Of a DNA stretch of 51,212 nt, positions 3,273 to 50,975 are shown piece by piece. The stretch's first letter is position 1. The number at the start of each line of letters is the position of its first letter. The position numbers and the translations under genes are program-made. The DNA lies in the IMG/VR virus record IMGVR_UViG_2049941000_000254; one strand, 5' to 3'. Below the pieces are notes generated by a model that was not told where the DNA came from, ran no database searches, and worked only from the letters and a program-made list of their open reading frames with translations. The DNA is from an uncultured virus (IMG/VR IMGVR_UViG_2049941000_000254). Its lineage: Duplodnaviria > Heunggongvirae > Uroviricota > Caudoviricetes.

Positions 3273-3352
3273 CCGCCAGTATTTAGTCATTCCTGACGTG
3301 ACATTTGGCTCAGGAGCACCGGGAATGACCCGTACTCACATGCATGCAATAG

Positions 3353-3711
3353 TGGAGGTGAGGGGAGTCGAACCCCTGTCCTAAACGTCATTCCAGTTCA
3401 ACCGTATCACAATCCATCGTTTTGGGCCCTGTCCTGTTGCCCTGGGAGATGTATCCTTGAGGGGTCCTGATCCAGTATAAGATAGCCGATCTACGACCAG
3501 TAACTCACGGCTAAATTTGAGAGATATGCACTTGGTCCCCGGCTTTATTCCTCTCGCTTGGCCGGGGCAACGGCGTGCTACCGGTTAAGCAGCAGCGCTG
3601 TAGGCGAATGCATTGTCAGCATTTATTGTTTTAGTCCGTTTTTACGAAGCCACAGACCAACTTCGTGTGAGGTCTCCACGGTCTGATGCCCAGTCGAAAC
3701 CAAGCACCCCC
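3353..3711 (-). ncRNA. ssrA: tmRNA; tag ORF 3620-3585 encodes (A)ADNAFAYSAAA*
   Basis: 5' GGGGGUG pairs with 3' CACCUCC including the G3.U Ala determinant; GGUUUCGAC after the acceptor strand; T-arm AGGGGUUCGACUCCCCU; resume context AAUAAAU-GCU; tag ends in AAA; 359 nt. Confidence 0.95.
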
Positions 3712-3908: not shown

Positions 3909-3916
3909 TTTTGTAG

Positions 3917-3990
3917 TCGGAGTGACTGGATTTAAACCAGCGACCTCCGGATCCCAAATCCGGCGCTCTATCAGCCTGAGCTACACTCCG
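3917..3990 (-). tRNA. tRNA-Pro (UGG)
   Basis: Full cloverleaf: CGGAGUG/CACUCCG acceptor, GCUC/GAGC D stem, CCGGA-UUUGGGA-UCCGG anticodon arm, GCUGG-UUUAAAU-CCAGU T arm; CCA not encoded. Confidence 0.93.
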
Positions 3991-4419: not shown

Positions 4420-4448
4420 AATGTAGCAAATTACATCGCGAATGTCAA
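4420..4448 (-). promoter_or_regulatory. Promoter of the ncRNA operon
   Basis: TTGACA-N17-TACATT with TGC extension; TSS ~4413. Confidence 0.8.
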
Positions 4449-7652: not shown

Positions 7653-7768
7653 GATAAATCATTTCTACACATTTCTACCAATTAAATATGTATTGGTGAT
7701 TTCTTGCTTCATCGCCATGCACTGCTCTTGTGTTTCAAAGAACTGCAACCTCATGTCTNNNNNNNNNN

Positions 7769-8419: not shown

Positions 8420-9323
8420 GGTTGGCGTAAACGATACCGTCGCTCGTGATTGCGAGGTCCTTGACGCCGAAATCGACACCCACGATGTCCTGTTCCTCGA
8501 ACGAGGATATGGATTCATGGACTGGAACAATGTCGGCTACATAGGCGAAGGAGACATACCACTTACCAGCAGCATCAACGGAAACCGTAGCCATAGCGAG
8601 CGGTATCTTCTCGGAGTCCTTCGGTATCTTGATGTAGTCCTTCTCACGGAGCTTGATTCTACCGAGGGTAGGTATCTGAACGAAATCACGACCGATGAAC
8701 ACACCACCGGAGCAGCGGAACGAGTTATCCTGGTTGTAGCGGTGGAAGCGTGGGTGCTTGGCTAGACCCTTGAAGAANNNNNNNNNNCACATACCACTTA
8801 CCAGCTGCATCGACAGATACTGTCGCCATAGCAAGCGGTATCTTTTCAGAATCCTTCGGTATCTTGATGTAGTCCTTCTCACGGAGCTTGATTCTACCGA
8901 GTGTAGGTATCTGGACGAAATCACGACCGATGAACACACCACCGGAGCAGCGGAACGAGTTGTCTTGGCTATACTTGTGGAAGCGGGGGTGCTTGGCTTG
9001 ACCCTTGAAGAACCGCTTCCACGCAGCACCCAAATCTATCAAGGCTTCCTGTCCACAGAACTTGCTGACTTCGGTCATCCATCTGTTACGGGGTTCCTTC
9101 TTGAACCTGCACCAATCCCTGTGCCAATCAATCGGAGTGCCGAACTTGCACTTTACCTTCTCGTCTTCGGGCGTATTGGCTTTTGCTAATTCGTAAGCCT
9201 TGTTCTGTTCTGCGAGTTTCCAATTATAAGCACGGCGGGAAACGGCACACATGCGGTACATCGTCCGTACCTGTGCCTTGCTCGGCTTTAAGCATATCTT
9301 CCTTCCGCACTGCTGGTCCATAC
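8420..9323 (-). CDS. tnpB: Fragments of additional TnpB alleles (N-terminal HTH/wedge and RuvC-I)
   Basis: MDQQCGRKICLKPSKAQ... and VGVDFGVKDLA; overlapping near-duplicates separated by gaps. Confidence 0.8.
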
Positions 9324-9437
9324 NNNNNNNNNNAGCCTCGTTGCAGTTAATTGCCTTCTTTACGGGATCGTCCGGAAGCCACGTGGAGCATGGGTTCTTC
9401 CACACCGTCTGCTCCGGCTTCGGCGGNNNNNNNNNNA

Positions 9438-10602
9438 ACGCACTGGGCGTTGCCGTGGGGGCAAGCATTCGCAACGGAATTGTCGCTTACGGTGTATCTC
9501 ACCGCATTGGTTTCAGTCGGGACTACTAGGTTTAGTAGCCACAGGCCATAGAACTGCAAGTTCCTGGCTGCATTGTAATCTCTGTCGTGGTGATGCCCGC
9601 ATACGGGGCATACCCATTCCCTATCATCCAGGGTCAAATCCTTGTTGTAGTATTGCCCACAGTGCGAGCAGTAACGGCTAGAAGCGTAGAACTGCGGGGC
9701 GAAGAATAGCAGTATGCCTAGCCAAGCACACTTATACTCCAGGAACTGTCGCATCCTTCCGAAGTTGGCATCGAGGATAGCGGAAGCCAGCTTGTGGTTC
9801 TTATACATGTTTTTCGGCTTCAAGTCCTCAATAACGATAGCCTTCGGCTTCGTATGCTTCGTAATGTCAGCAGTGAACTGGTGAGCCGCATTGACTCGGA
9901 TGTTGGTTATCCTTCTGTGGATTCTACCAAGTATCCTCTTGCACCGCTCCCTGTTCTTGGAGTGTTTTTTCTTGCGGGATAAAGCTCTCTGGAATCTGCG
10001 TAGCCTAGCCTTGGCATGCTGGTAGGCTTTCGGGTTGGCGTAAACGATACCGTCGCTCGTGATTGCAAGGTCCTTGACTCCAAAATCGACACCCACTATG
10101 TCCTGTTCCTCGAACGAGGATATGGATTCGTGGACTGGAACGATGTCGGCTACATAGGCGAAGGAAACATACCACTTGCCAACAGCATCGACCGATACGG
10201 TCGCCATTGCAAGCGGTATCTTCTCGGAATCCTTCGGTATCTTGATGTAGTCCTTCTCTCGGAGCTTGATTCTACCAAGCGTANNNNNNNNNNACGCTTC
10301 CATGCGGAACCGAGGTCGATTAGGGCTTCTTGACCGCAGAACTTGGAGACTTCCGTCATCCACTTGTTATCGGACAGTTTCTTGAAGATGCACCATTCCT
10401 TGTGCCAATCTCTCGGTGTACCGAGGGTGCATTTGACCTTCTCGCCTTCCGGTGTGTTGGCCTTGGCTTCCTCGTAAGCCTTGTTCTGCTCGGCTAGTTT
10501 CCAGTTGTAGGCACGGCGGGAAACGGCACACATACGGTACATCGTCCGCACCTGTGCCTTGCTCGGCTTCAAGCATATCTTCCTTCCGCACTGCTGTTCC
10601 AT
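9438..10602 (-). CDS. tnpB: TnpB RNA-guided nuclease (spans gap 10284-10293; C-terminal tail continues at ~7665-7758)
   Basis: RuvC D (GVDFG), E (VIEDL) and D (DRDYNAA) intact; Zn finger CSHC...CPVC. Confidence 0.9.
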
Positions 10603-10615
10603 AGTCTATATAGCA

Positions 10616-10710
10616 AATGCCCGATGAACACTTATTGTGGAAGTTAGCGTCCATCGGGCATTCAAAAGTCCGTTATAATGTCTTATGCAAGAACTTCCAC
10701 CTACTTGCAT
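10616..10710 (-). promoter_or_regulatory. Kissing-loop 5' leader RNA of tnpB (element 1)
   Basis: 7-bp hairpin with loop UAGGUGGAAGUU; 17-bp hairpin with loop AACUUCCACAAUA; 9-nt loop complementarity. Confidence 0.7.
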
Positions 10711-10719
10711 CTATCATTA

Positions 10720-10727
10720 AGTTTATA
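10720..10727 (-). promoter_or_regulatory. Late-type promoter motif TATAAACT
   Basis: Same 8-mer at 14534(+), 19472(-), 20310(-) and 50301(-), each just upstream of a gene or leader. Confidence 0.55.
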
Positions 10728-10838
10728 ACAATCTACAATTATTTTCATTAAAAATCAAGGTATTATTGCAAGAAAATGTATATAGAAACTGGTTAAAGTT
10801 GGTAATTGTTGGTAGAAATGATGCTATCTGTTGTCATC

Positions 10839-10924
10839 CCCATGCTGTTGCGTCCCGGAATGGGCTTCGCGTTCTTGCACTGTTCAAGGAGCTGTTCCTT
10901 GGTGAAATGTTCACTTTCTGCCAT
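10839..10924 (-). pseudogene. 5' half of the gene interrupted by IS607 element 1
   Basis: MAESEHFTKEQLLEQCKNAKPIPGRNSM ends at the CATGGG target. Confidence 0.7.
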
Positions 10925-10926
10925 GA

Positions 10927-11949
10927 TTACCAACCTGTTATATGTTTAGCGAGGCTATGTTCAAATGCCATTAGTGCCAGACTGTCGGCGATTACGCCAT
11001 CGCACAATAATTTTCCGCCATGCGCATCCTTATCGGAGAATACTACCTTGTAATTCCCGTCATCGTGCTTTTCGAAATAGATGGTGTATTCTACATCGCC
11101 CTTCTTGAAACGCAGGTAGAGGATATTTTCGTCGCCCTGCCGTTCAAACTTGACACCAAAGTTTTCCAGGACCTTTTCAATCTTATCCATCGGGCGCTTC
11201 CACAAGGGATAGCCATCGGGGTCAAGTTGCGTCGTTTCGCGCTTCGGTTCTTCCACTTTCTCCTCGGGCTCAGCTTTCGGCCGTTCAATAGGAAATTCGA
11301 GTTTCTTGGCAACCCTCTTCTGCTGTTCGCGGATCTTTTCGATAACGGGAATATCGAATTTCTTGACAACCCTCTTCTGCTGTTCATGATTCTGTTCGAT
11401 ATCGGCGCACGAGCGAGGGCACTCCTCATTGGAGTCGCAGACCCGGCATTGTTCCGGGGTAGCCTTTATGCAGGCTTCAATCGTTTCGGGCACGGCGGAA
11501 TCATCCTTACTCGGTTCCTCGGGTTCACTTTCAGTGGTATGTTCCTCGGCAAACTTCTTGGCCTCGTCCGGACTCATATCAAGCGGGACTGTCGCAAGAA
11601 AATTCTTGACATCCTCGCGCAGTTTTTCGGTTTCCTTCTTACCCGGCGCCTTCTGCACCGCGGTAATTACAGGAAGGCCATTCTTCATGCACATTTCCAT
11701 GACGGAATGGGTATCTTCCTCGTAACCGCTGTCAAGACGGGCACCCTCGATGAGATTGGCGAACTCGTCGTCGATACGGCTAATGAGGAGACGGTAGAAT
11801 GCCGCACCTTCCTGGAAACCTTCATAGAAGGCGCGTCTGGCCTCCTTGTCGCCTTCATGTTCCCCCATTGGCTGGAACATCTTGGCCATGCGGGAACCCG
11901 CTGCGCGGATTGCGGCATTTTCAACCTTGATTAAGTCTTTCTTTTCCAT
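10927..11949 (-). CDS. Hypothetical protein with acidic linker and internal duplication (EQQKRVVKKFDIP/EQQKRVAKKLEFP)
   Basis: Start at MEKKDL with AAGGA SD. Confidence 0.75.
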   Translation of the reverse strand: MEKKDLIKVENAAIRAAGSRMAKMFQPMGEHEGDKEARRAFYEGFQEGAAFYRLLISRIDDEFANLIEGARLDSGYEEDTHSVMEMCMKNGLPVITAVQKAPGKKETEKLREDVKNFLATVPLDMSPDEAKKFAEEHTTESEPEEPSKDDSAVPETIEACIKATPEQCRVCDSNEECPRSCADIEQNHEQQKRVVKKFDIPVIEKIREQQKRVAKKLEFPIERPKAEPEEKVEEPKRETTQLDPDGYPLWKRPMDKIEKVLENFGVKFERQGDENILYLRFKKGDVEYTIYFEKHDDGNYKVVFSDKDAHGGKLLCDGVIADSLALMAFEHSLAKHITGW

Positions 11950-12488: not shown

Positions 12489-12509
12489 AACACAAATGTA
12501 GCAAACAGC

Positions 12510-13457: not shown

Positions 13458-13492
13458 ACACCAAATGTAGCAAATTGTGTAGTGGACGGCAA

Positions 13493-14050: not shown

Positions 14051-14212
14051 GCAACAAATGTAGCAAAAGGGGGCCAAAATGGCAATATGAACTATCGTGA
14101 ACTACCTATGTCCGAACGGACATATGGGAGTCTCGCCTGACTTGGTGTACTGTGCGACTCGTGCGTCTGAAATAATCATGGCTACTCTTTTTTCAAGATT
14201 TCNNNNNNNNNN

Positions 14213-14451: not shown

Positions 14452-14559
14452 CTGTACTACTCCTTGTCCTTGTAATGTTGTTCTTTTCGCCCATGCCGAT
14501 AATGTAGCAAAAGCCGGCTGCGCTGACAACCGGTATAAACTGCGGATGGAGGTAAATTC

Positions 14560-16339: not shown

Positions 16340-16520
16340 NNNNNNNNNNACGCAACAATGGCATACCTTTATACATGTCGCCATGTTTTTCCAATAATTT
16401 TGTACATAAGTCAACTACTTCATCTTCATCAAGCTCATCCACTGGCCGCTTTGACAATGGTTCTAGTTCTTTAATTAGTTCAGCTCGGTATTCATCTGGA
16501 TTATGTTCAANNNNNNNNNN

Positions 16521-16880
16521 ACCGATTTCCACTTTACCATGAAATTTTCATAGCAGGCAACCGGGGCCACGATGGCAATGACATCGGACTGGGCCTGGGG
16601 CGCATAACGGGTACGTCCGACCTTGAAATCGCGCTGCTCAAAGCCTTCGCCCCATCCGTCCGAGAACTGGCCCTCGGCATCGTCGATAATCTTGGCCAAG
16701 GTTTCCTTGAAATCATCGGTATCGTCAATGATGTCCTGGTCAATGTAGTACCCGACACAAAGGCAGATACCCTTCTTCTTGTCCCATGTGAGGAAATGCT
16801 GTGCGGGCTCGACACCCTTCGGCAAGTCGTCCTCGTTGTGCGGAAAGTTACGTGCGAACCATGTGGGTCCGAACCAGGTA
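16521..16880 (-). CDS. Uninterrupted (empty-site) allele of the gene hit by IS607 element 2
   Basis: Reads CTCACATGGGACAAGAAGAAGGG (16763-16790) continuously through the insertion point. Confidence 0.8.
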
Positions 16881-17082
16881 NNNNNNNNNNNNNNNNNNNN
16901 NNNNNNNNNNNNNNNNNNNNNNNNNNNNNNNNNNNNNNNNNNNNNNNNNNNNNNNNNNNNNNNNNNNNNNNNNNNNNNNNNNNNNNNNNNNNNNNNNNNN
17001 NNNNNNNNNNNNNNNNNNNNNNNNNNNNNNNNNNNNNNNNNNNNNNNNNNNNNNNNNNNNNNNNNNNNNNNNNNNNNNNNAG

Positions 17083-17300
17083 GCAGATACCCTTCTTCTT
17101 GTCCGATAACTCATTTCTATGAATTTCTATGAATGATAGCAAAAGTTGCATATTATGTCAAGGAGTTCATAGAGCTGAGTTCTTGCTTCATAGCCCGGCA
17201 CGATTCATCCGCTAGGAAGAATTGCAACCTCCGGTCTCTGGGGCTGACAAAAGTCACGCCTTCCTTCTGATATACAGAAGGGCAAGCATCGGCGGAACAA
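17083..17300 (-). ncRNA. TnpB omegaRNA/reRNA overlapping the tnpB 3' end; predicted guide ACAAGAAGAAGGGUAUCUGC (17102-17083); 5' boundary approximate
   Basis: GAGGTTGCA.TTCTT...GTGC.....ATGAAGCAAGAA conserved with 7700-7758; known TnpB guide geometry. Confidence 0.65.
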
Positions 17301-18517
17301 CCGCCTACGGCTAATCGCGCCGCAACATTTTCGTCGGTCTGGACGAGTCCAGCCAACCACTGTCCGTAGAATTTGAGGTTGACCGCCGCATTAGCGTCAC
17401 GGTCATGGTGACAGCCACATACCGGGCATGTCCATTCACGGTCAGCGAGAGTTAAATTGTCATTATGATAGCATCCGCAGTGCGAGCAGTAACGACTACT
17501 TGCATAGAACTGAGGAGCAAATATGAGCTTGATGCCAAGCCATTGACACTTGTATTTAAGAAATTCCTTGATTCTGCCGAAATTGGCATCTAGGATACTG
17601 GATGCAAGATTGTGATTCTTCGCCATATTACCGGGTCGAAGAGTCTCCATCACAATCATCTTTGGCTTCAACTTGTAGGTCAGGTCGGAAGTCATCTGGT
17701 GAGCATGGTTCACTCGGATACAGGTGACCTTGTGCCAAGCCTTTGCCAACCGCTTCCTAGCCTTCTTGCGGTTCTTTGACTTCTTGTGTTTCCTAGATAC
17801 CGCCTTCTGCAATCGATTGATGCGAGTTATATAGCGTCGGTATGCTTTCGGATTGGAATAGACAATGCCGCTAGAAGTGATTCCAGAATCCTTCACGCCG
17901 AGGTCGATACCCTCGATGTCATCGGAAGCAATTTCGGTATCTGGCGAATAAAGTGGTTCTACATCGACATGGTAGGCGAACGACACCGACCAGTGACCCG
18001 TAGGGTCTACCGATACGGTAGCCATCGCAATAGGCGTCTTCTCCACGCCGTCCGGTATCTTTATGTAATCCTTCTCGGCTAGACGGACACGACCGAGCGT
18101 GGGGAGCTGGACGAAATCACGACCGATGAATACACCGCCCGAACACCGGAATGATTCGTCTACGCCGTACTTATGGAACCGTGGATGCTTGGCTAGACCC
18201 TTGAAGAATCGCTTCCAGGCGGAACCGAGGTCGATAAGTGCCTCCTGACCGCAGAACTTGGAAACTTCCGTCATCCATTTGTTCTCCGGTAGCTTTTTAT
18301 GGATGCACCATTCCTTATGCCAGTCGATGGGCGTACCGAGCTTGCACTTGACCTTCTCGCCTTCTGGTGTGTTCTTCTTGGCTTCCTCGTAGGCTTGATT
18401 CTGGACAGCGAGCTTCCAGTTGTATGCACGACGAGAGACAGCGCACATACGGTACATCGTCCGTATCTGAGCCTTAGTCGGCAGTAAGCCTATCTTTCGT
18501 CCGCACTGTTGTTCCAT
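17153..18517 (-). CDS. tnpB: TnpB RNA-guided nuclease, 454 aa, complete
   Basis: HTH N-terminus; GIDLGVK / VMETL / DRDANAA catalytic D-E-D; Zn finger. Confidence 0.95.
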   Translation of the reverse strand: MEQQCGRKIGLLPTKAQIRTMYRMCAVSRRAYNWKLAVQNQAYEEAKKNTPEGEKVKCKLGTPIDWHKEWCIHKKLPENKWMTEVSKFCGQEALIDLGSAWKRFFKGLAKHPRFHKYGVDESFRCSGGVFIGRDFVQLPTLGRVRLAEKDYIKIPDGVEKTPIAMATVSVDPTGHWSVSFAYHVDVEPLYSPDTEIASDDIEGIDLGVKDSGITSSGIVYSNPKAYRRYITRINRLQKAVSRKHKKSKNRKKARKRLAKAWHKVTCIRVNHAHQMTSDLTYKLKPKMIVMETLRPGNMAKNHNLASSILDANFGRIKEFLKYKCQWLGIKLIFAPQFYASSRYCSHCGCYHNDNLTLADREWTCPVCGCHHDRDANAAVNLKFYGQWLAGLVQTDENVAARLAVGGCSADACPSVYQKEGVTFVSPRDRRLQFFLADESCRAMKQELSSMNSLT

Positions 18518-18525
18518 ACAAAAAG

Positions 18526-18620
18526 AGACGCCTCGCAAGGAACTAAATCGCCATTCATTTCCTCACAAGGCATCTAAAGGTTTCTTTCGGTTCTACCGGA
18601 GAATGGCGATAATCCGGTAG
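18526..18620 (-). promoter_or_regulatory. Kissing-loop 5' leader RNA of tnpB (element 2)
   Basis: 8-bp hairpin with loop UUAUCGCCAUUC; 17-bp hairpin (4 G.U) with loop containing GAAUGGCGAU; 10-nt complementarity; own promoter TTGCAA-N17-TATATT at 18661-18633. Confidence 0.75.
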
Positions 18621-18661
18621 TTCTTTATGTCAAATATAGTAAACAGTAAACAAGATTGCAA

Positions 18662-19441
18662 CTAATCATCTGACCATCTGGATAATCCGACTGCATCACC
18701 AAGTCTAGTATTTTTCTTAGGCAAAATCTTATTCCATTCTTCGTTGGTATGTTGTTCTTCTGGCATGTTTTTATGCAGCCAGGTTGTTGCTCGCTGAGAT
18801 GGGTGACTAGAAGACACCCTATTACGATTCATACTTATATTACCACCAGACCAGTTTTCAGTCCAATCGTTAATAATATCATCTAAGGTACGCCGCCATG
18901 AGCCACTCCAGCTCACTAATTTTTTTAAAGAATTCAAATAATGCTTAACTCTAGCATCATTTTTCATAATAAGTCCGCTAAATAAACCAATCAGCATTGC
19001 GGGTACCGTTCGTATCGCATCAAATGCCCTATTTTGATATACACGAACGAATTTGGCGTTGGGATTATCTTGGTCATACCCAGTGCCTTCATAATGCTTA
19101 AATTGATTCAATAAATAATAATTAGAACCGGGTTCCACTGGTTGTGCATCCGGTTTCAATTNNNNNNNNNNGCCAAATAGGATATTCCCTAATGATTGGA
19201 TAACGCTTTTATACAATTTGTATGTTACATATACTGAAACCGGTGCCGCTAAAAAAGTCGAAATGTCACCATCAAATAACGACGCTTCTGTTAAACAAGA
19301 TGCTGTTTGATGTGCAACATCATGTTGTGCTTCAATCAGTGCTTTATACCCCTTGACCAGCGGTTCTGCTGCATCCGGCACATTATACATCTTACAGACG
19401 CTTTCAATGAAATTGGCGTAAGTCATTTCCAACTGGTTCAT
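18662..19441 (-). CDS. Cargo protein of unknown function inside IS607 element 2 (spans gap 19162-19171)
   Basis: AT-rich ORF between tnpA and tnpB; TATAAACT at 19479-19472; N-terminal FIES-x16-GYKALIEA motif. Confidence 0.7.
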   Translation of the reverse strand: MNQLEMTYANFIESVCKMYNVPDAAEPLVKGYKALIEAQHDVAHQTASCLTEASLFDGDISTFLAAPVSVYVTYKLYKSVIQSLGNILFGXXXXLKPDAQPVEPGSNYYLLNQFKHYEGTGYDQDNPNAKFVRVYQNRAFDAIRTVPAMLIGLFSGLIMKNDARVKHYLNSLKKLVSWSGSWRRTLDDIINDWTENWSGGNISMNRNRVSSSHPSQRATTWLHKNMPEEQHTNEEWNKILPKKNTRLGDAVGLSRWSDD

Positions 19442-19474
19442 GGTATATTCTCTCAACTAATGTATATCCATAGT

Positions 19475-20131
19475 TTATACTTTTGCCCCAGCATCGGCTG
19501 ACTTCTTTTCGGCTCGTTTCTTCCTGTTCTCCTTACCTCGTTTGCTGTACAGCTTGGCAGAGAATACAGCAATCAGTGATAGCATATCCTTTACCAAGTC
19601 AGCCTCGAACGACTCACTCAGCACGGATTCGACATACTCCACCTCGACGCCATGTGACCGGAAGTATTCCACAACCAGCTTGAAGTTGAACCTCGTAAGG
19701 CGGTCGTAATGCTCGATGACAACCTTATCGAACTTGTGTTCGCAAGCCAGTCGCATCATCTGCAACAGCTTCTTTCGGTTGTCATTCAAGCCGCTACCGA
19801 CCTCCTCGAATACATACTCAACTGCGTACTTCTTCTCAGCACAGTATTCTAGCAACCGGAGCTTCTGTCGGTCTAGGTCGCCATGCGACTTCTGGTCGGA
19901 AGTGGATACACGGCAATACACCGCTACTCGGTTGCCCTTACTGGCTGTGTTGGTCTGGTCTGGTTTGATTTCTCCGAGGTAAGCTCTGAGTTCGTCCTCG
20001 TCCCAGCGTCGGTTTCCCTTTTCGCTGGCACGGTAGGCGGTCAGTTTGCCTTCCTCCGTCCATCTGCGTAGCGTGTCTGGGCAACAGCCCAGAATCTCAC
20101 ACGCCTTCTTCGTTCTTACTTTCTTGCCCAT
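19475..20131 (-). CDS. tnpA: IS607 TnpA serine recombinase (MerR-like HTH plus resolvase domain)
   Basis: ACEILGCCPDTLRRW..EGKL; VYCRVSTSDQ; EEVGSGLN; HYDRLTRF; DMLSLIAVFSAKLY. Confidence 0.95.
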   Translation of the reverse strand: MGKKVRTKKACEILGCCPDTLRRWTEEGKLTAYRASEKGNRRWDEDELRAYLGEIKPDQTNTASKGNRVAVYCRVSTSDQKSHGDLDRQKLRLLEYCAEKKYAVEYVFEEVGSGLNDNRKKLLQMMRLACEHKFDKVVIEHYDRLTRFNFKLVVEYFRSHGVEVEYVESVLSESFEADLVKDMLSLIAVFSAKLYSKRGKENRKKRAEKKSADAGAKV

Positions 20132-20291
20132 TCTCAACCTCTATTCCGAGCATATCGGCACTGCGGTCGAGCATCGTCTGGAACTCTTCCAGGGTAGGCA
20201 AGGGGTCGATGTCGAACATCATGGGCTGGATAGTTCCGTCCTCAAGTTCGAACTCTTCCTTGGTGATGCGTACTACTTTCATGCGTTTCAT
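20097..20291 (-). CDS. Small acidic ORF inside the left end of IS607 element 2
   Basis: AAGGAG SD and TATAAACT upstream; overlaps the tnpA start. Confidence 0.6.
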   Translation of the reverse strand: MKRMKVVRITKEEFELEDGTIQPMMFDIDPLPTLEEFQTMLDRSADMLGIEVENGQESKNEEGV

Positions 20292-20395
20292 CTCGTTATA
20301 TCTCCTTTAAGTTTATAACGCAGCGCATAAAATATACATAATAATTCATAGAAACTCGTAGAAATTCATAGAAATCTAGTTGTCAGTTACTGTCC

Positions 20396-20610
20396 CATGT
20401 GAGGAAATGCTGTGCGGGCTCAACACCCTTCGGCAAGTCATCCTCGTTGTGCGGAAAGTTACGTGCGAACCATGTGGGTCCGAACCAAGTAAGCATTTCC
20501 GGGAAAATTTTCCGTTCATCCTCGAGGTCGATGTCATCGTAGTGTTCGCCTGTACGGACGGTCACCTTGTAGTAAATCTGGACGATGTCTGCATCGTATG
20601 TTTCTTTCAT
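20396..20610 (-). pseudogene. 5' half of the gene interrupted by IS607 element 2
   Basis: MKETYDAD...QHFLTW matches 16786-16880. Confidence 0.8.
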
Positions 20611-22765: not shown

Positions 22766-22827
22766 AATGTAGCAAATGACAAACCGAACGGCAACCGGTT
22801 GCCAACAGTCGCATTCTTTGCTACATT
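22766..22827. promoter_or_regulatory. Back-to-back divergent promoters
   Basis: TTGCCG-N17-TACATT (minus) and TTGCCA-N17-TACATT (plus) around the palindrome GGCAACCGGTTGCC. Confidence 0.8.
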
Positions 22828-24262: not shown

Positions 24263-24451
24263 NNNNNNNNNNGTATTACTGTTCATTGATTTCTCCTTTG
24301 AGATGTTAATTTAAGTTAAACTATCGAATGCACCGAGTCGGCATCGTATATGTGGAAATCAGAGTTGACGACCATCCTGCCGACTACTCAAATATAGCAA
24401 AAATATCCACCGGAAGCCTACCGGTGGCAGTTTTTTTGCTATATTTGGAAT

Positions 24452-32522: not shown

Positions 32523-32573
32523 AATGTAGCAAAAATGTTCCCGGTTGCCAACGGCAGGGAACAATGCTACATT
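32523..32573. promoter_or_regulatory. Overlapping divergent promoters, both leaderless
   Basis: TACATT-N6-ATG on both strands (ATGs at 32516 and 32580). Confidence 0.75.
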
Positions 32574-33674: not shown

Positions 33675-33721
33675 GCGGCATGCTCGGCCCAGTACCGGTG
33701 CATTTTTGCTATATTTGTGGC

Positions 33722-34099: not shown

Positions 34100-34232
34100 C
34101 CGGCATGATATGTTGGCACGTCAATGACGAGGAACTGTTCCCAATCAGATAAGGAACCGATGGCGAAAGACGGACAGCTCCCCAGTGAATGTGCCGGTTG
34201 CCAGCTGGTGCCTGTTTTGCTACATTTTGGAC

Positions 34233-47665: not shown

Positions 47666-47720
47666 AAATGTATGCAGTGCGGAAACTCACCCATCTTTAG
47701 TGGGTATGAGGAGCGCTGCT
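47666..47720 (-). mobile_element. 3' end of the IscB IS200/605 element, followed by ATGAAA (candidate TAM)
   Basis: Hairpin CTCATACCCACTAAAGATGGGTGAG then TTTCCGC..., typical of IscB ends. Confidence 0.55.
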
Positions 47721-48834
47721 TCCTCCATAATGTAGGTGTTGTTGTGATGTTTTAGGGTCAGCTTCTTGTAACTGACCGAATCTGCTAGAACTTTTCCGGT
47801 GATATCAGCAACCGAAAACGATCCCGACATCCTACGTCCGCTCAGAAAGCACTCCCTGTATGCATACCTGACGGAATCCATCAGCCGGAATCCCCTTACT
47901 TCACGTGGTGCCTGGTTGTTTCTACGCTTGCCGCCCCGAAGAATGGTTGCATGGTGCAGTTGCCTGTTGTTCACATGCAACTTGCGGATAATCCAGTACT
48001 TGCCATCTGAACATGCACACGGATTGCCGCTGATGCAGCGGGCATCTATCACATGTTCCTTCGGAAGTCCATGGCTAGTGCGGGTATGTTTGGTGATGTA
48101 ACCATATGTATCGTAACAAGGAATTACCTCACCGATTTCCTCCTTCAGCCTGTTGAATAGCGCTTTCCGCATGATACCCATCTGTGCCGCGTCACGCAGC
48201 GATGTACCACGTCTTGCAGTCTTCGACAGATCGATTTCTCCACGGTGGTACTTAGCATGGCATTCCGAGCACAACGTGATAATGTTGTTAGGTGCATCAC
48301 CGCCTGTCTTCCGACTCTCGATGTGGTGGACATGCAGCTTCTTGTCCTTGGACTTTCCCTTGCAGCACTGGCATTTGTGCCCGTCTCGACACAGCACGTA
48401 TTCCCGCACATTAGAGAATCCGAGCTGTTCGCCCTTCTGGTAGTCGGTACCCTGAGGCAACGGAAGCCCCTGTGTCTGGGCCTTCAACAGCTGGGTATCG
48501 AACTGCGCAGTTTCCACCGTTATCTTCTTGATAGGCAAGAACTTGCAGATTCTCGAAATCCAGTGGATATGACAATCCACCTTCTGTCTTACGGAAGGTG
48601 CAATCCATCCCGGCTTCTTGGACCCAGTCCTGTTCAGGAACCGAGGCTTGCGGTAGCGAGTTTTCCTGTTCCTTCTGGTCCGACGGAACTCCCTTCGTGC
48701 AGCCAGCTTGGCTACGATATCCGACCTCAGCAATAATTCTGCTTCGAAAAGTACCTTCTTCTTGGTAGTCGCGGAAAAGCCTACATGCTTCGTACCCGCG
48801 TCTACGCCTAGACTGACCCCCTGGACGCCGTTTG
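47687..48834 (-). CDS. iscB: IscB RNA-guided nuclease (N-terminus in gap)
   Basis: RuvC-I GVDAGTK, Arg-rich bridge RREFRRTRRNRKTRYRKPRF, RuvC-II VETAQFD, HNH HVHHIESR...NIITLCSECH, RuvC-III HVIDA. Confidence 0.95.
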
Positions 48835-50294: not shown

Positions 50295-50351
50295 GCCTGT
50301 AGTTTATATGGTTTGGTTGCCACCGGGTGGCGTATTTGCTACATTTGTTGC

Positions 50352-50709: not shown

Positions 50710-50975
50710 ATCAACTACCCACGGGCTAAAGACCCGTGAGTTTGGGGTAACCCGGACTCATAGTTGATTAGACTCAGTGAAGCATAGCAATATGCTGAAC
50801 TACGTTAGGAAGGCCATAACACCTACGGATGTACGGTCAAGTCTGTAGCTCTGTTGAATGTCATTAAACAGTCCTGATGGGTAGGGACAGTGTGGCGTTC
50901 ACGACAAGCCTCCCTAACATTGTCGATGACCACCCACAGGGAGCAATCCCTGCATTACCTATTAAGTTAGGTTCA
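50710..50975 (+). ncRNA. IscB omegaRNA (HEARO-like); guide is the flank ~50692-50709
   Basis: ATCAACTACCC...GTTGATTAGACTCAG...CTACGTT...CACCTACGGATG...AGTCTGTAGCTCTG...AACATTGTCGATG, directly upstream of the iscB ATG. Confidence 0.9.

Follow-up and report, generated by a model that had tools for sequence, protein, structure and literature searches.

TnpB, the ancestor of Cas12, is encoded by one of the most abundant genes in prokaryotes and is a compact genome-editing tool. To our knowledge, the control of its own expression has been little studied. In the IS200/IS605 family, the left end of IS200 has a terminator hairpin, a stem-loop which sequesters the ribosome binding site (RBS) and the antisense RNA art200. 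Its accepted role is to hold the element's protein at a very low level of expression and to shield the element from transcription coming from outside. In T-even phages, the genes for homing endonucleases (I-TevI and its relatives) have a hairpin which hides the RBS in early transcripts, and an internal late promoter frees it. In the antisense attenuation of plasmids pT181, pIP501 and pAMbeta1, as in the RNA-OUT/RNA-IN pair of IS10, the second loop lies on a separate antisense transcript from the opposite strand. The leader described here is compared below with these systems (IS200, the T4 homing endonucleases, the plasmid antisense RNAs) and with HK022 put.

The window we have analyzed is a whole stretch of 51,212 nt from an uncultured virus (IMG/VR IMGVR_UViG_2049941000_000254). 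It is phage-like, most of its ORFs have no known family, and it contains 50 runs of N (2075 bases), mostly of exactly 10 N, several of them inside ORFs. About 110 bases on the 5' side of a tnpB gene on the minus strand (copy 2) correspond to a cis-encoded, self-contained structured 5' leader RNA, which is transcribed from its own promoter just 5' of a first hairpin. An earlier note on this DNA had listed a promoter, hairpin 1, a 17-nt spacer, a 17-bp hairpin 2, a tail and the ATG, and all of them are present on the minus strand. The promoter (18631..18661) has a -35-like AGTTGCA/TTGCAA and a -10/-7 box TTTACTATATTTG. In a promoter scan, TTGCAA (18661-18656) and TATATT (18638-18633), separated by 17 nt, give 9 of 12 matches. 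Hairpin 1 (18593..18620) has an 8-bp stem, with arms CUACCGGA (18620-18613) and UCCGGUAG (18600-18593), and a 12-nt loop (18612-18601). After the spacer of 17 nt (18576..18592), hairpin 2 (18526..18575) has a 17-bp stem with four G.U pairs (18575-18559 paired with 18542-18526) and a 16-nt loop (18558-18543). The U-rich tail CUUUUUGU (18518..18525) separates hairpin 2 from the tnpB start codon (ATG, 18517-18515), and no free Shine-Dalgarno (SD) core is found between hairpin 2 and this ATG.

The two loops contain exact reverse complements of 10 nt, as had been claimed: AUCGCCAUUC (18610-18601) in hairpin 1 and GAAUGGCGAU (18556-18547) in hairpin 2, the sole exact pair of that 10-mer in the window. 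Judging from the leader sequences, the paired strand of hairpin 1 directly abuts the 3' arm, and a linker of 2-3 nt is left on its 5' side. That of hairpin 2 abuts the 5' arm, or very nearly so, and 4 nt are left as a linker on its 3' side. The topology would thus be that of an H-type pseudoknot (kissing hairpins). The 141-nt leader stretch folds at -45.1 kcal/mol, compared with -29.8 +/- 3.8 for shuffled sequences (z = -4.0; 1 of 200 shuffles is equal).

We have gathered relatives of tnpB from one genome locus, 22 viral loci and 74 metagenome loci. The two-hairpin leader is found in 27 of the 50 distinct upstream regions, those with a match from residue 1. The total is 35 distinct leaders from rumen phage and metagenome contigs, with 15 versions of the loop-loop helix, 7-10 bp long and all of them complementary. 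In our first alignment of 27 rows, the copy-2 class was off by one column and L059 was misaligned, and its figure of 87% for the loop helix is an underestimate. We have re-counted the classes separately, with L059 excluded from the counts and examined by eye and by script.

The main class contains 21 distinct aligned leaders, and its loop-loop helix is Watson-Crick in 189 of 189 cells. Both sides have changed in five of the nine pairs (42 cells). None of 500 shuffles matches this score, and control helices slid along the alignment are 21-59% paired. The stems of this class are 96.4% paired, with double changes at nine pairs, and RNAalifold recovers hairpins 1 and 2 unaided. The copy-2 class (six leaders) is 98.6% paired; its loop helix is invariant inside the class and wholly unlike that of the main class. 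The strand can also be assigned, as had been proposed from the G.U pairs of copy 2. In the main-class stems (525 cells) there are 76 G.U against 2 A.C, and 96.4% of the cells are paired in the sense strand against 82.3% in the antisense strand, so the sense RNA is the strand that folds. Cognate loops pair with a mean energy of -14.9 kcal/mol, compared with -6.1 for non-cognate loops. The alignments thus point to a leader RNA fold which almost certainly exists: The class of structured RNA 5' of tnpB proposed in the earlier note is genuine and strand-specific, and its loop pairing is proven by covariation. We have rejected a further idea, that the loops are a hypervariable "address code". The loop columns change at about the rate of the unpaired spacer (0.295 against 0.356), and several loop variants cross-pair at -13 to -14.5 kcal/mol.

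The window contains a second leader of this type, which belongs to the main class. This copy 1 leader (10603..10732, minus strand) has a -10 box TATAAAC, a hairpin 1 (10710-10685) with a 12-nt loop and a hairpin 2 (10663-10615) of 18 bp. Its kissing strands are GUGGAAGUU (10700-10692) and AACUUCCAC (10645-10637). Hairpin 2 is followed by a tail and by a second tnpB, which has its ATG at 10602. The architecture is that of copy 2, with other sequence. The first loop had been said to be the same in both copies, which is correct for its length (12 nt), but the sequences differ. The second stem measures 18 bp and not the 17 bp given for it. The loops of the two copies are orthogonal, with cross duplexes of -4.2 and +1.5 kcal/mol. 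Tandem tnpB copies or fragments are found in this region of the minus strand (8421-9321, 9458-10602 and 7692-7757). The copy starting at 10602 is interrupted by a run of 10 N and a frame change, the copy starting at 9321 has only residues 1-222 and N mask the sequence directly 5' of its ATG, and a remnant of 22 amino acids is also present.

A covariance model built on the nested part of the leader matches 35 places in 91 sources, and 11 places in four of five whole phage records. A pattern scan of viral contigs with 16-mers gave 23 loci, four of which are leaders according to the covariance model, three of them on contigs already found; the remaining loci are probably chance matches. Every match of the model lies directly 5' of an ORF. 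Four lineages of TnpB are found downstream: 454 amino acids, 371-376 amino acids (27% identical), 404 amino acids and at least 502 amino acids. The leader is not specific for tnpB. It also precedes a gene for a DUF7487/PD-(D/E)XK-like protein and two ORFs with no known family, of 285 and 132 amino acids (the latter in L026). Two loci (L003 and L028) have a TnpB which is 95-97% identical to that of copy 2 and yet have leaders of the main class, so leaders and genes have been reshuffled by recombination. Leader, tnpB and guide RNA are each a module of their own, and promoter and leader form a portable cassette placed before selfish nuclease genes in rumen jumbo phages. The leader is absent where tnpB directly follows tnpA (TAATG overlap) or follows a NUMOD-domain gene with an SD.

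Close relatives of this TnpB are found in IMG/VR contigs of up to 279 kb and in metagenome contigs (up to 433 kb) whose samples are recorded as bovine gut. In front of distant TnpB (35-47% identity) the covariance model found no leader. A loose detector for analogous leaders before these distant genes gave only AT-rich chance matches or single long hairpins. No blastn match to the copy 1 leader and the 5' end of its tnpB was found in records of cultured phages.

The tnpB gene of copy 2 (17153..18517, minus strand) codes for 454 amino acids, with HTH_OrfB_IS605, OrfB_IS605 and Cas12f1-like TNB domains (Pfam). Residues D205, E291 and D374 are invariant in seven homologues, and we take them to be the RuvC catalytic residues. 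The gene is part of an IS607-like element of about 3.3 kb (~17102-20392, minus strand). Its order on this strand is left-end repeats TTTCTAYGA (three copies, 20374-20345), an ORF of 64 amino acids (20291-20097), a serine-recombinase tnpA (20137-19475; Pfam Resolvase and HTH_17/MerR), an ORF of 264 amino acids with no known family (19456-18662), the leader, tnpB, and two inverted right-end repeats TTCATAGAAA (17133-17114). A serine-recombinase TnpA with a MerR-type HTH, together with TnpB, between subterminal repeats corresponds to the IS607 family.

An uninterrupted copy of the target, an empty site at 16761-16880 beyond a gap of 200 N, defines the junctions of the element, and GGACA is common to both of them. 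When 16761-16880 is compared with 17081-17107 and 20391-20491, the element is seen to split a phage ORF between …HFLTWD and KKKGICL…. Either the assembly joins occupied and empty alleles or the segment is duplicated. An IStron or group I intron was considered and rejected: There is no Rfam intron match and the bases at the junctions are unsuitable. At the right end of the element, a strong promoter-like site faces outward (17133-17161, minus strand; TTGACA, 17 nt, TATCAT, 11 of 12 matches, with TG). Transcription of the downstream half of the split phage gene, or of a short guide RNA, could start from it.

The scaffold of the guide RNA (omegaRNA) lies at 17102..17315 (minus strand), overlapping the 3' end of tnpB, and is found in contigs from RNA libraries. 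Such contigs, from four libraries and three studies, span 17102-17434, which includes the tnpB 3' end and the right end of the element; they indicate presence only, not level, ends or absence. Three of them diverge at 17102, the right end of the element, and continue with different sequence, the pattern that guide RNAs from sister copies would give if their guides differ. One contig of 151 nt from the RNA libraries spans 18399-18527, and none covers the hairpins, which is uninformative for the leader because contigs indicate presence only.

The L026 element has the same order (tnpA, a homologue of the 264-aa ORF, leader, tnpB), with the additional ORF of 132 amino acids between leader and tnpB. 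The L036 element has tnpA, a NUMOD-domain gene and tnpB, without a leader. The passenger ORF of 264/294 amino acids (18662-19456, minus strand, in the window; 1574-2458 in L026) is kept in two IS607-like elements, and neither the 264-aa ORF nor its L026 homologue gave a lead in Pfam, PHROG or Atlas. At the same position L036 has a NUMOD1/I-HmuI-like gene of 442 amino acids.

The phage has a recurrent, strongly over-represented motif, GGTTGCC followed after 13 nt by TTTGCTAYATTTG. TTTGCTAYA alone occurs 14 times, against 0.48 expected. TAYATTTG in this motif fits the -7 box of Bacteroidota. In nine cases the motif is followed by an ATG after exactly 4 nt, and from this constant distance the phage's own mRNAs appear to be leaderless. 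Sites of the motif are found at 12497-12505, 13466-13474, 14059-14067, 14503-14511, 22768-22825 and 24393-24443, and also at 32525-32533, 33705-33713, 34216-34224, 50335-50343 and 4422-4430. In two cases, a pair of motifs points in divergent directions from a palindromic GGCAACCGGTTGCC. The enrichment of SD cores in the phage is very slight (20 of the 135 long ORFs, against a background of 10%, the ORF set being noisy). The tnpB of copy 2 does lack an SD, as noted earlier, but this is unremarkable here, since the phage's mRNAs appear to be leaderless and SD cores are hardly enriched. The promoter of the copy 2 leader matches TTTGCTAYATTTG in 12 of 13 positions. Every class of leader has a conserved -10 box about 10-12 nt 5' of hairpin 1, either TATAAAC or TATATTTG (copy 2 and L131), so hairpin 1 should be at the extreme 5' end of the RNA. 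We have also considered a leaderless tnpB mRNA from a promoter in the tail, and rejected it: The match of the tail to the phage motif is only partial, and the ATG comes 2-6 nt too soon after it.

We consider that the leader most likely keeps the expression of the selfish nuclease gene in check. Hairpin 1 would offer a sequence of 9-10 nt in its 12-nt loop, which would pair with the loop of the long hairpin 2. Hairpin 2 and the conserved U-rich tail would act as a leaky intrinsic terminator, or as a roadblock, right before the SD-less start codon. The loop-loop helix would lock or tune the fold of hairpin 2, and the expression of the downstream nuclease would be damped. We prefer this mechanism of termination tentatively, as a serious possibility which falls somewhat short of an even chance. 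In all classes, hairpin 2 is long, with a G+C-rich core and a U-rich stretch after it. The 16 nt before the start codon have 48% T and 17% A (35 leaders, all classes), although the tail sequences are unrelated between classes. The first U's of the tract pair with the base of the hairpin 2 stem. A free SD after hairpin 2 is found in only two of the 35 leaders (L026 and L130), in both cases outside the hairpin and beyond the U-rich stretch, so the conserved feature is the hairpin with its U-tract, and not the masking of an RBS. The absence of the leader where tnpB directly follows another ORF, with a TAATG overlap or with an SD after the NUMOD gene, is also consistent with a damper.

Other features fit a terminator less well. 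The loops of hairpin 2, with 13-16 nt, are unusual for intrinsic terminators and fall outside the short-loop range (about 3-8 nt). For this reason hairpin 2 is missed by a simple terminator scan, which accepts loops of at most 8 nt. A terminator discriminant of the d'Aubenton-Carafa type is negative in 25 of 27 leaders, and copy 2 is borderline (-4.8). The U-tract of L026 is weak. An antiterminator helix that would compete with the two hairpins is not predicted: The consensus fold has only the two hairpins and single folds show no conserved alternative, so nothing suggests a switch. Attenuation, which had been proposed for this leader, agrees with the U-rich tract found after hairpin 2 in all classes, but the large loops, the lack of an antiterminator and the mostly negative discriminant do not agree with it. 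We regard attenuation by the leader as plausible but weak. There is also a natural variant, L049, in which the left end and the promoter are joined straight to tnpB and the whole leader is missing (~130 nt before tnpB), which argues against a damper.

A hairpin at the extreme 5' end would suit an mRNA stabilizer equally well. The pseudoknotted hairpins may protect the precursor of tnpB and the guide RNA from decay dependent on the 5' end, or direct its cleavage at a defined point, an explanation which is rather unlikely. Hairpin 1 should be within a few bases of the transcript 5' end in every class, and the ORFs that follow the leader are unrelated, some having an SD and others none. Yet one hairpin would be enough for protection, which leaves the loop-loop helix and the conserved U-tract unexplained. 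As a variant of processing, sharing the same rather low likelihood, cleavage could leave an mRNA which starts at the AUG, like the phage mRNAs which appear to be leaderless. The constant 4 nt between the promoter motif and the ATG of the phage's own genes favours it. The tail resembles the phage promoter only in part, with the wrong spacing, which does not.

The same anatomy may act on translation. A rigid fold which ends 8-12 nt before an SD-less AUG could limit the access of the 30S subunit, and little TnpB would be made from the full-length mRNA. Most leaders do have 8-12 nt between the end of hairpin 2 and the ATG, a free SD is missing from 33 of 35, and no leader is needed in elements where tnpB is coupled to the ORF before it. 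Nevertheless, L026 and L130 have a normal, unmasked SD outside hairpin 2, and the base of this hairpin consists of weak A-U and G.U pairs. Since SD use is low in the whole phage, a gene without an SD is not necessarily translated poorly. We consider such a throttle on translation possible, if on balance doubtful. Both explanations, stabilizer or processing and throttle, fit the anatomy of the leader about as well as a leaky terminator or roadblock.

A more specific form of termination would be a new type of attenuator, in which the outcome is decided by the loop-loop pseudoknot and not by competing stems. The loop of the promoter-proximal hairpin would capture the loop of the emerging terminator and set the read-through into the toxic nuclease gene. 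Loops that are free to change would let copies with the same loop act in trans, as a multicopy inhibition among sister elements in one phage. If so, the cassette would be a portable and programmable dose controller for selfish nucleases. We consider this proposal, taken as a whole, unlikely.

A regulated switch appears to be quite improbable. The loops could be sensed by an antisense RNA, by a protein (TnpB or TnpA) or by sister leaders, or else the terminated leader could act as a small RNA which controls copy number or timing. The orthogonal loops of the two copies in the window agree with this, as do those of two leader-bearing copies on one IMG/VR contig, which also differ. The sequence of the hairpin 2 stem is also conserved beyond what pairing demands. 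In the elements, on the other hand, no third copy of the loop sequence recurs: A search for further copies of the loop 9-mer on either strand of 22 loci gave only two stray matches, none recurrent. Exact 9-mer complements between the leader and the guide RNA or tnpB show no conserved site; RNAduplex on long pieces of leader and guide RNA gave meaningless full-length duplexes. The loop columns change no faster than the spacer, with no sign of diversifying selection, and the cross-pairing of several variants also counts against a switch. The antisense sensing suggested in the earlier note is not supported, because the loops pair with each other and a third complementary site is not recurrent in the elements.

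Processive antitermination of the put type, in which two promoter-proximal hairpins would modify RNA polymerase to read through the guide-RNA region and the end of the element, seems very improbable. It would suit the phage setting, the two hairpins right after the promoter, a transcript which must cross a highly structured 3' region, and the presence of the guide-RNA part in RNA libraries. However, the leader has no likeness in sequence or structure to any antiterminator RNA in Rfam, and the U-tract directly after hairpin 2 points in the opposite way. Finally, an inverted repeat acting as DNA in recombination or replication is hardly credible: The strictly Watson-Crick loop-loop helix (no G.U in 189 cells) agrees with it, but the stems have the G.U excess and the sense-strand bias given above, and the copy 2 leader is 1.8 kb from the left end of the element, outside any terminal site.

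The leader is a small RNA module with unusually clean covariation. Since it moves between unrelated nuclease genes in rumen jumbo phages, it lends itself to a study of the way in which mobile elements control the dose of an enzyme that cuts DNA. The leader is a candidate for a new Rfam family, and possibly a portable part for the control of expression.

We have compared the leader with known RNAs. In the whole window, Rfam 15 at the gathering score gave only HEARO, tmRNA and tRNA, all away from the leader, and no family reaches its threshold in the leader. Permissive Rfam scans (16500-20500, 9300-11000, 10560-10860 and 11 leader loci) gave only noise. The HEARO RNA (131.5 bits) is at the end of the window (50710-50937, plus strand), and an HNH-endonuclease ORF (47687-48733, minus strand) is found near it. 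The minus strand also has a phage-borne tmRNA with the tag ADNAFAYSAAA (3350-3711) and a tRNA-Pro (3916-3990). The best Rfam match to a leader is RAGATH-7 (RF03159), a motif with no assigned function, in copy 1 only: 13.7 bits against a gathering score of 111.8, for a model of 208 positions, with E 0.81-4.6. It is not listed for the 11 other leader loci, where a match of such strength would not be expected within the E-value limit. The likeness is weak and local, in the loop of leader hairpin 2 (…CUAAC…ACAAUAAG…) and near hairpin 1, and the aligned helices do not correspond to leader hairpin 1. We found no paper on RAGATH-7 in the literature searched. According to PMC11061315, RAGATH-18 is the 3' guide scaffold of IS607 TnpB, and 33 RAGATH motifs are still without a function. 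None of the papers listed in our literature search connects TnpB or IS607 with a leader of the kissing-loop type, and a search for leaders and terminators gave nothing relevant.

The omegaRNA (reRNA) of TnpB and HEARO resemble the leader as structured non-coding RNAs of the same mobile elements. The omegaRNA is at the 3' end of tnpB (17102-17315) and carries a guide; the leader is 5' of tnpB and has no guide. Like the present locus, the plasmid antisense systems and IS10 have a kissing contact beside a terminator-like hairpin in a gene's leader, and the dose of that gene must be limited. The difference is that a single sense RNA here carries both loops, separated by 40-47 nt, so that a change in one must be compensated in the other.

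The T-even homing-endonuclease genes have in common with this locus a phage, a selfish nuclease gene and a leader hairpin just 5' of the start which limits expression. In our leaders, however, neither an SD nor the start codon is inside hairpin 2: In most of them, 8-12 nt separate the stem from the ATG, the SDs, where present, are also outside, and no internal promoter with the right spacing is found. The left end of IS200 is also a structured RNA before a gene of the same transposon superfamily. Its structures precede tnpA and not tnpB, they mask an SD and use an antisense RNA in trans, with no loop-loop pairing, whereas our leader has no SD to mask and its pairing takes place within one RNA. 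In summary, this leader is conserved and, according to Rfam and the literature searched, undescribed so far; it would belong among the structured leaders which restrain a mobile element's own gene.
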